DNA of 63,401 bases, filler included, from Sphacelaria rigidula (lineage: Eukaryota), in the NCBI GenBank assembly GCA_964200075.2. It is 7 parts of 7 records of this genome, joined end to end, with 100 filler letters (N's around TTAATTAATTAA, not from the genome) between each part and the next. Parts side by side here need not be neighbours in the genome. Positions count along the whole stretch, not along the records: positions 27,218 to 36,188 come from CAXNAA020009611.1; 6 more parts are not named here. One strand, given 5' to 3'. The notes below the pieces were generated by a model that saw only the letters and a program-made list of their open reading frames with translations, was not told the DNA's origin and searched no databases. Within the stretch, counting starts at the first letter, position 1. Each line of letters begins with the position of its first letter. Made by a program: the position numbers and the translations under genes. Shown piece after piece: positions 27,011-30,632 of this stretch.

Positions 27011-29489
27011 TGTAAATGAATAACACTCAAAACAAAGTGACCTGGTACCGCACAAGATAAATATACTTGACAAAACCTATCAATGCAAAGCCAAAAAAAA
27101 AAAACAAACAAACATCANNNNNNNNNNNNNNNNNNNNNNNNNNNNNNNNNNNNNNNNNNNNTTAATTAATTAANNNNNNNNNNNNNNNNNNNNNNNNNNN
27201 NNNNNNNNNNNNNNNNNATATGTCACTTCAGCCCCATATTTTGTATGAACCCCAAAATATGAAATCGGCTGTTATCCGGGGTTTCCAGGACTTGGGGACG
27301 GGGTGTCCCTCCACGAAGTATCCGAGAAACCCATAGAGTCAACCTTGTGTGGAAGTTCCTCGCGGGAAATTTTGAGCTGCGCACGAGGCCTGAGTGGCGC
27401 GGGACGACCATTCTGACCAATCGTGGTCGTCAAAGTGAGCGCTTGGGTCCCGGTAGAGGTGGCCTGCGGATAGACACATCCGCCGTCTACCCTCGAGTCT
27501 TCTTTTGACAATGCCAAATCAGTCAGGGGTCGGACAAATAATGATTCGTCTGAGAATTACTTGGTTTTAGTATCATGAGTCGACTGATGACGAACCAATC
27601 CCTTGGTTTTATTTCAGCGTTGCAACCCAGGTATACGCAGCCCAGACACGTGGAGTGGCGCAAAAGTTGCGTCGATACCCTTGGACCAACGAGCAACTTT
27701 TTTCTTCCTTTTGGGCATTCAGACCGAAGAAATCGTGAATTTGGTGATATTGAGTCGTGATGATTTGTCTTAACCGTTAGATCAACCATAGACTACGACC
27801 AAAAGGCAGGTGTTGGAGCATCTTCGGTACTGCCTCAACGTCCTACTAGGTCCATTACTTCATCTGGTATAGAACGTCAAGGCACAGCATGCGAGCGGCG
27901 GCCACGATTATCCTACGCACGCATATGTAGACAAGTACTTCGACGGTGAGGCGACCAACATCATCACTGAGCAATTGCTCTAGGGTAGTCAGAGGCGTTC
28001 GCGGCGGTAGTCATCGGGTGCGATATCGAAACGCACGCTGTCTACATACGGCACGTTCAACACTGTAAGATCCAGTAAGCTGCAGACCGCTCGACACGAT
28101 ACACTACAGACTGCACAGCAGAAATATGAGACGTAATAATCAAGTGGTCGACAACCACACCACCGTCTGTGTCATGACTCTCGCAACTATGTGCTGCCTC
28201 TTGTGCACTCCCGGTCACTTCCTTCCGCCGCAGAGTAGGCGTTTGAGTTGTGACAAAGGAATGATTCCGAACCCAAAAAGCGGAGTGTCTACATCAGTCT
28301 ACCAGCGGGGGGTCGCCGCCCAAGGGTTAATCTCACGAAAACGTTCTTCAAAATAGTTCTGGTCGCGTATCATTGTGGACGGGATGAATGATCTCGCAGC
28401 GAAATGCTCTTAGAACGTTCGTAGGGATTCTCTCCCATTTTCATTCCCGCCTGTCGACCGCACATGGGGGTGGGCATTTTTTTTGCAGCAGCCTACGACG
28501 CGCGGCTCCTCGTTCCGCAACGAGTAAGAGGACGCGAGGATTCGAAACCTCTGATACATATGACCCCCGTGGCTCGCCAACAAAAACAACCAACGTCAAA
28601 ACTGGGTTACGTCATTTCCTCGACAACAGGCGAACGTGGCGTCTCTTCAAAAAAAGAGGGCGGAGTGTCCCAAGTGCACTTCGTCATGGTTGATCGCATT
28701 ATCTATTTCTGCACACCAACCGACTCATCTCTGACACCACCAGCGGTGCTACGAGATGGACACACTGGAGGTGAAAATATGAACAGAACACTCGTTAGAG
28801 CAGGAAACATGGAGGGGAAAGTTGAGATGACGGTGGGTAGCCGTCATTCTACAGGATCAGGTGATAATATTGGAGGAAAGCCAGCAGTAGTGCGGGCGTA
28901 CACGAAGTTGGTGTGTCCATGCGCAGTATCAGTGTGCATGTGGGTTTTTCACGTCAAGTCGGTTGCTTCTAGCTGCTGTCCGTGATTTTGATATCGCCAC
29001 CGCATCAAGCGGGGTCTGATCAGGCGGTGCGGCAGAAAAGAACATATCGCCTATCCCGAGACACCTGTCTTTTTCATGGCAGGCTTCCGCGTGCACTACT
29101 CCCGTCAGTGTGGGTGGTTTTCCCACAAGGAAAAAAAAAGTTGCGAAGGTGCTTAGGATAAGGTAGGGTGCAGAAGACCTGTGGGTACTGTTGTGTACTG
29201 AACATTTCACCTGTCAATACGCCAGGTACCACGGGATTCTCACTAGCTTAAGCAGTCGATACTGTTCATAATGAGTACACATTGCGAGAGAAGCGTTAAA
29301 GTGTTCCCATATATACTGTAGCAGCACCGTGTAATAATGACTGATGACGCTGTTCGATGGCATTTTATTTGCTCATTCTGGTATTTTTCTGGTCCTGTGT
29401 GCTCTTTTCTCCCGGTGTATCCAAGTAGCAGCTTGGTGCCTCGCTTCCGTAGGGTGCATGGGCGACGAGAGCTTCATACCCAAGCGCCG

Positions 29490-30123
29490 GTCGCCCCGGT
29501 GGCTCAGTTGGTAATTACCTCGAAACCTTCTGACGGATGGGTCGTGGGTTCGAATCTCGGAGCGATCTGAGATTTTTATCACATAAAGCCCACCAACAAC
29601 AGTGGAGAGCGACCACGTCGTGGGTACGAGGGAGACGAACTGCTGAACTCCTCTCGCGATAAAAAAATCAAGGCAACCACAGCAGAAGGAAGGTGTGTTC
29701 AGGAAGCGAACAGTTTATCCATTGAACCAGTGAGCGCTCACTGGTAGCTCAATGGTCAAATGTTCGCTTCCTGCCAGGGATCTCCGGGGCCTCTTGCCCC
29801 TCGCAAGCCTCACTGTCCACATGTCAAACTCATTCCTTCCACAATCGATCATGCCGGAATCCGAACCCCATATCTTTTGTTCAGGAAGCGAACAGTTTAT
29901 CCATTGAACCAGTGAGCGCTCACTGGTTCAATGGATAAACTGTTCGCTTCCTGAACAAGGTGGAGAAGTGAAACAATCAGAAGAAAACACTCCTCTTCTT
30001 GTGCTGGCCTGCCTCCTGGCTGTGTGACCCCGGCTGGTTCGCCCACACAGTTATACTGAAAGGTGTAGACCGGCGTCCAGAATAGATGGGAAGACAACAC
30101 ACCCAAAATATTGAGGTCGAAAT
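29490..30123 (+). mobile_element. tRNA-derived SINE family 1, longest copy, interrupted by the 262-bp insertion
   Basis: GTCGCCCCGGTGGCTCAGTTGG (A-box) and GGTTCGAATC (B-box). Homologous to 15297-15505 and 54256-54330. The 3' limit is a guess. Confidence 0.72.
29696..29957. mobile_element. 262-bp TGT..ACA element with palindromic, tRNA-derived ends
   Basis: Perfect 5-bp TSD AGGTG (29691-29695 / 29958-29962). 50-bp perfect terminal repeat. Loop-less palindrome 29877-29958. A-box and B-box on the minus strand. Confidence 0.9.
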
Positions 30124-30518: not shown

Positions 30519-30632
30519 ATGGCGAACGTCGAAGTAGAGAAAGCGGCATACCTGAAGCTGATGCTTCATACAGCCAAGTATCCGTGGGCGGAAGTCAGTG
30601 GCTTTTTGCTCGGGCAGGCGTCGGGTGAAGAT
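30519..30632 (+). CDS. EMC8: ER membrane protein complex subunit 8/9 (UPF0172, MPN-like), first coding exon
   Basis: MANVEVEKAAYLKLMLHTAKYPWAEVSGFLLG matches the family N-terminus (AY.K..LH.AKYP...V.G.LLG). GAT|GTGAGT donor. Downstream exons not found in this contig. Confidence 0.85.

Follow-up and report, generated by a model that had tools for sequence, protein, structure and literature searches.

The element described here lies in a window of 63,401 nucleotides of Sphacelaria rigidula DNA (filler included; assembly GCA_964200075.2), where it interrupts a very high-copy, SINE-like host repeat. The 5′ part of this repeat (29485-29690, plus strand) carries a tRNA-like head, and its 3′ part (29963-30102, plus strand) is followed in other copies by (CA)n-like tails. 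The summed contig depth over the repeat (~29485-30102) exceeded that over its flanks by orders of magnitude. By description alone, as given in the accessible part of PMC12477816, the repeat matches the Ectocarpus 'unknown4-N1', a possible SINE of CRE. The first exon (30519-30620) of an EMC8/9-like (UPF0172) gene follows the element at a distance of ~560 bp.

The element is 262 bp long, starts with TG at 29696, ends with CA at 29957 and is flanked on both sides by AGGTG (29691-29695 and 29958-29962, plus strand), in agreement with the preliminary description. Its right end (29878-29957) is a perfect 80-bp palindrome contained in the loop-less 82-bp palindrome reported earlier (29877-29958). The left end consists of an outer arm (29696-29735, plus strand), which is the mirror image of a type-A tRNA half, and an inner arm (29736-29774, plus strand), which is a type-B tRNA half that carries an A-box and is itself ~3 nt short; ~40 bp following the left end are absent here in comparison to full copies such as locus L002. 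The 50 identical bp said to be common to both ends were recovered as direct as well as inverted repeats, and the whole element forms an inverted repeat of 80 bp perfect and ~35 bp inner sequence. A tRNA-like Pol III head (29850-29917, minus strand) runs from the palindrome centre, with an A-box at ~29911-29901 and a B-box at 29867-29857, the latter bearing a substitution in this copy. The minus-strand succession of A-box, D-arm, anticodon-like arm and B-box was found as proposed. The element had also been claimed to end exactly at the anticodon-arm hairpin; its boundary does fall in the anticodon stem, on the 3′ strand at about tRNA nt 41 in the ungapped alignment with host tRNA-Arg(CCT), whereas the small hairpin of the preliminary description is in another register. 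Flush with the right end, a short inner inverted repeat (29869-29877, plus strand) occupies the PBS/PPT position and is a candidate self-priming site.

The core between the left end and the head (29775-29849) is non-coding. Part of it, at ~29800-29845, bears a weak likeness to an end arm, with a score that was attained by 5 and 25 of 2000 shuffles, and is possibly the relic of a shorter ancestral unit. A direct join of such a core to a new head was seen in 3 of 92 loci, and the frequent core-to-head switching suspected by eye was dropped on this count.

The element was absent from all 29 paralogues of the host repeat, and its flanks projected to exactly one 5-bp overlap in 11 of them, several more looking alike by eye. 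Since the paralogues lack the element and the site is single in these cases, the duplication is real and arose at insertion. Both junctions were spanned with no differences by contigs from public runs, the left one in X2 (29638-29722) and the right one in X1 (29933-30049); X1 may derive from the source sample, and X2 comes from another study.

A DNA search of the genome identified 341 candidate contigs; the 40 of these that were scored contained 163 matches. Exact matches to the terminal 18-mer of the element numbered 218 in comparison to 0 for the control. A full family copy is ~300 bp long, with a middle of 140 bp between two copies of an 80-bp palindrome (X). From 92 loci, one per contig, 95 clusters were obtained, of which 35 had both termini; removal of three with inner or edge ends left 32 complete copies, and the remaining 60 clusters were truncated or cut by contig ends. 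An exact 5-bp target-site duplication (TSD) flanked 10 of the 32 complete copies, and 16 had one within a single mismatch, compared with 0.13 and 1.19, respectively, expected from mismatched flanks; exact duplications of 4, 6, 7 or 8 bp were found in none of the 32. The ten exact targets were all different and revealed no target preference, and only 2 of the 32 copies adjoined the host SINE, so targeting of that repeat was not seen. TG..CA termini were present in 24 of the 32, the others being off by one or two bases. The multi-copy family and the excess of exact TSDs argue against chance, and this is a real family of mobile elements with fixed ends and varied target sites, as the preliminary description had claimed. 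The same description had counted a single copy, missing TSDs or ragged ends against such a claim; copies are many and ends are fixed, whereas a TSD is absent from 16 of the 32 complete copies. Shifting the boundaries rescued none of these 16, which had diverged only slightly further, with 3.3 edits per arm as opposed to 2.4 in the exact-TSD copies.

Each X is composed of an arm of 40-42 nt, which is a tRNA 5′ half, and its mirror image. Starting at the palindrome centre, the arm and the next 30 nt could be aligned without gaps to host tRNA-Arg(CCT), which supports the proposed tRNA-derived Pol III head. The suggested Arg-CCU-like origin holds for type-A heads, for which Arg(CCT) scored best among 60 host tRNAs (62-64, next 51-54), and not for type-B heads, which scored 49 against it and 57 against Lys. 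The assignment is therefore tentative, also because the tRNAs used form an incomplete set that is organellar in part (63 scored of 16,541 rough candidates, 60 sequences compared). No tRNA was called by ARAGORN in the window, and Rfam scans (window stretch, L007, L014 and L016) likewise gave no ribozyme or tRNA match but only sub-threshold matches, mostly to generic hairpins; the lack of a hammerhead ribozyme in these scans separates the family from retrozymes.

The middle of a full copy contains two inward-facing tRNA heads around the core, with the A-box located within the end and the B-box in the internal region. Of 127 arms, 6 were unclassified; a B-box-like motif was present in 56 of the 65 on the head side and in none of the 56 on the opposite side, indicating one promoter per unit. 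In three intact folded copies, the first T4 was found ~180 nt from the palindrome centre, which places it at the inner edge of the far X. The same position held a T4 in 38 of 43 units, a count that is partly circular because units were picked for a near-T4 end, and transcription may continue past this T4. At L019, L025 and L027, the head-side B-box segment was replaced by a promoter-less segment, and these units are likely dead ends from strand switching. Cover by run X6 was rejected as a sign of expression: X6 is merely guessed to be RNA, and no run is on record as such.

Many copies have an X-mid-X-mid-X organization in which X is shared and a single TSD pair encloses the whole array, and 7 of the 10 exact-TSD copies were longer than a monomer. 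Among 17 internal X junctions, as read from a fragmented assembly of 27,214 contigs, 10 were head-to-head, 6 head-to-tail and 1 tail-to-tail; by our own count the ratio was 8:5:1 after three loci found by a head-to-head query were left out. Random flipping in place would produce equal numbers of head-to-head and tail-to-tail junctions, in contrast to this bias, whereas a head-to-head excess is predicted if synthesis turns back or jumps at an RNA 5′ end. The arm types A and B switched at the palindrome centre, and B arms were on the head side in 19 of 24 cases. An RNA intermediate is indicated by the one-sided promoter together with the location of the junction centres at the presumed start of the RNA. 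Among 101 ends, 15 carried rare variants mirrored within the palindrome, 21 cases in all (mean of the controls 5.1, maximum 14, 2000 runs), and the mean distance within a palindrome was 6.26, barely below the 6.93 between loci. Mean distances between ends were 6.3-8.0 (n = 30) and no smaller when the two ends of a copy were compared as direct repeats than in any other pairing, in contrast to fresh LTR pairs; near-identical end pairs were present in L176 and L002 and not in L014.

No conventional priming signals were recognized. The border lacked the TGG of a PBS, and the best complement to the 60 tRNAs of the incomplete host set was 7-8 nt, which is at chance level and away from the LTR border; a match to the PBS of host Copia elements was not found either. 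The sequence TGGTCC, located 14 nt inside, was considered as a tRNA-Tyr PBS and dropped: it is on the antisense strand, and tRNA-Tyr is absent from the recovered host set. At the PPT position, copy L002 was only 33-40% purine on either strand; the segment is conserved across copies. Instead, the PBS and PPT positions both hold a 9-nt inverted repeat flush with the terminal CA. The RNA 3′ end was predicted to pair at this post-CA site with p = 0.94 in L002. Of the 43 units modelled, only 11 had p > 0.5 for such a fold, and under rough typing this held for 1 of the 17 scored as type B; the type-B models show pairing between the 5′ arm and the core instead.

The search for longer elements that share these ends and encode integrase or reverse transcriptase, as the preliminary description had suggested, was unsuccessful: 50 integrase loci, from a survey that scored 150 of 1683 integrase candidates, gave only chance BLAST matches of 12-14 bp. 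Long ORFs beside one-ended copies, of which 10 of 13 listed were scanned, were unrelated or without a Pfam match, and pattern scans of metagenome contigs gave 0 matches. The host Copia element L221 is bounded by TG..CA and flanked by a 5-bp TSD, and curated Copia elements of Ectocarpus all have 5-bp TSDs, whereas those of Gypsy are 4 bp (accessible part of PMC12477816, suppl. 1). The host Copia PBS matches the tRNA-Met anticodon loop over 9 nt, which is the half-tRNA priming type; it was located flush with the LTR in L220 (2009-2019), L236 (near 2219) and L221 (minus strand). The arm of the element likewise ends in an anticodon stem. In locus L269 (G000:C10224, 1-260), an element end precedes a Gypsy gag-like start by 18 bp. 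This Gypsy was rejected as a partner, as nine other contigs with the same Gypsy region (internal part seen) had no end match, which makes insertion the simpler reading of L269.

Taken together, the family probably represents a non-autonomous, Pol III-transcribed miniature retroelement of the TRIMp3/Helenus-like kind, with palindromes of a tRNA 5′ half serving as 80-bp LTR equivalents. The TG..CA ends and the 5-bp TSD indicate an LTR-type integrase, a pathway that is inferred only. A Pol III RNA of ~180 nt would start in the centre of one end and stop at the T4, and a helper LTR element, most likely Copia, would reverse-transcribe and integrate it. The RNA 3′ end might pair with the 9-10 nt right after the terminal CA and prime TG-first DNA, and at the RNA 5′ end the enzyme may turn back or jump to a second molecule, which would rebuild the palindrome and give rise to monomers as well as head-to-head multimers. 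The self-priming detail is a tentative addition to the retroelement reading, and one more likely wrong than right. The complete scheme is a speculative proposal, likewise more likely wrong than right: a tRNA-independent element whose single ~180-nt RNA acts as promoter, template and primer for both ends, whose palindromic LTRs are rebuilt in each cycle by the turn-back at the RNA 5′ end, and which borrows a Copia-type integrase to insert the monomers and head-to-head multimers derived from hairpins.

We consider it unlikely, but still a serious competitor, that the family is a cut-and-paste foldback MITE, Ginger2/TDD-like or of an unclassified integrase-type transposase, with the tRNA as a captured passenger and the arrays produced by slippage and recombination in palindromic DNA. 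The inverted repeat that makes up the whole element, with its 80 bp perfect and ~35 bp inner portions, is within the 40-270 bp TIR range, a PPT is absent and no PBS is recognizable, and the end pairs are not LTR-like. Ginger2/TDD elements and Ectocarpus DNA5-N1_Ec32 also combine TG..CA with long inverted termini, and 5-bp TSDs are reported for TDD-4/5 (accessible part of PMC2836005) and DNA5-N1; a 502-bp TGTTG..CAACA element of Ectocarpus with a 5-bp TSD is annotated as 'possible Ginger?' (accessible part of PMC12477816, suppl. 1). However, the one-sided B-box, the head-to-head bias and a switch of arms located where the RNA would start are all unexpected for such an element. The termini here are TGTTC and not the TGTNR of Ginger, and the TSDs described for Ginger1/2 are 4 bp in the available portions of PMC2836005. 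Neither a Pol III head nor palindromic ends are described for Ginger2/TDD or DNA5-N1 in those portions of the two sources, DNA5-N1 being compared by description only. Furthermore, no transposase element with these ends was seen in the partial sample of loci.

An ordinary Helenus-type TRIM, primed by some host tRNA or tRNA half and with palindromes and inversions maintained by gene conversion after insertion, is distinctly improbable. The preliminary description had known of no named family with this design, but tRNA-promoter TRIMs with 5-bp TSDs have been described as Helenus/TRIMp3, and the following comparison is based on the accessible parts of their description (PMC10886601). Those elements are non-coding and below 1 kb, with two terminal direct repeats, tRNA-derived A and B boxes and tandem arrays, and the Copia-mobilised fungal and plant families have the 5-bp TSD found here; size, lack of coding capacity, ends, TSD and arrays fit. 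The PBSs of fungal Helenus match anticodon loops, and the host tRNA set tested here was incomplete and lacked tRNA-Tyr. On the other hand, the chance-level tRNA complement, the missing border TGG, the lack of a host Copia PBS match and the low purine content at the PPT position all weigh against an ordinary TRIM. Helenus has a PBS and a PPT with both boxes inside the LTR; here the B-box is internal, the PPT is absent and no PBS is recognizable, and the element was therefore not filed as Helenus. Palindromic LTRs made of a tRNA half and arrays with inverted units are further differences, and neither palindromic ends nor brown-algal members are mentioned in the accessible Helenus text or its readable supplement. 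In the same account, priming does not involve the tRNA-like portion of Helenus, and LTR homology with an autonomous partner is not required. Helenus is nevertheless the closest known kind, from which the family is set apart by the palindromic ends and the missing priming signals. An assembly or library template-switch artefact, which a fragmented assembly and artefact-prone palindromes might invite, is highly improbable in view of the identical centre and ends in 101 palindromes with private variants, the TSD statistics and empty paralogues that fit real insertions, and the contigs, one maybe from the source sample, that cross both junctions in the window without differences.

Other known systems share single features with the retroelement favoured here. 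According to the accessible part of PMC7215508, Cassandra TRIMs have a Pol III promoter in the terminal repeat and form LTR-internal-LTR arrays with shared LTRs, but the promoter is 5S-derived, the tRNA PBS is conserved, the LTRs are far longer and the arrays are tandem. TRIM arrays of sugar beet also share LTRs and often keep TSDs (accessible part of PMC13570524), and arrays alone are therefore not new. Self-priming LTR elements (Tf1/Sushi, TAR) dispense with a host tRNA for reverse transcription as well, with a primer that is cleaved off the 5′ end of the RNA (available portions of PMC6317226), whereas the candidate primer here is the RNA 3′ end. A tRNA head with A and B boxes is common to tRNA-derived SINEs; the fixed ends, fixed 5-bp TSD and missing tail of this family differ from the variable TSDs, simple-repeat tails and ragged 5′ ends of SINEs and support the earlier statement that it is not a LINE-mobilised SINE. 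The open-access literature, to which the comparison was confined (Repbase and the Ectocarpus consensus sequences lying outside it), yielded no description of palindromic LTRs, of inverted units or of a lack of primer sites.

If the family is a retroelement, Pol III-promoter TRIMs extend to an algal lineage, and an LTR-type parasite can shed its PBS and PPT and use palindromic ends that are free of orientation. An RNA of 180 nt is small enough for in vitro tests of self-priming and turn-back synthesis with standard enzymes. The 80-bp hairpins are similar to miRNA precursors, and the annotation of miRNAs and transposable elements would be misled by them. Solo palindromes of 68-80 bp were also observed at L100, L105 and L107, one of them with a TSD matching at 4 of 5 positions.
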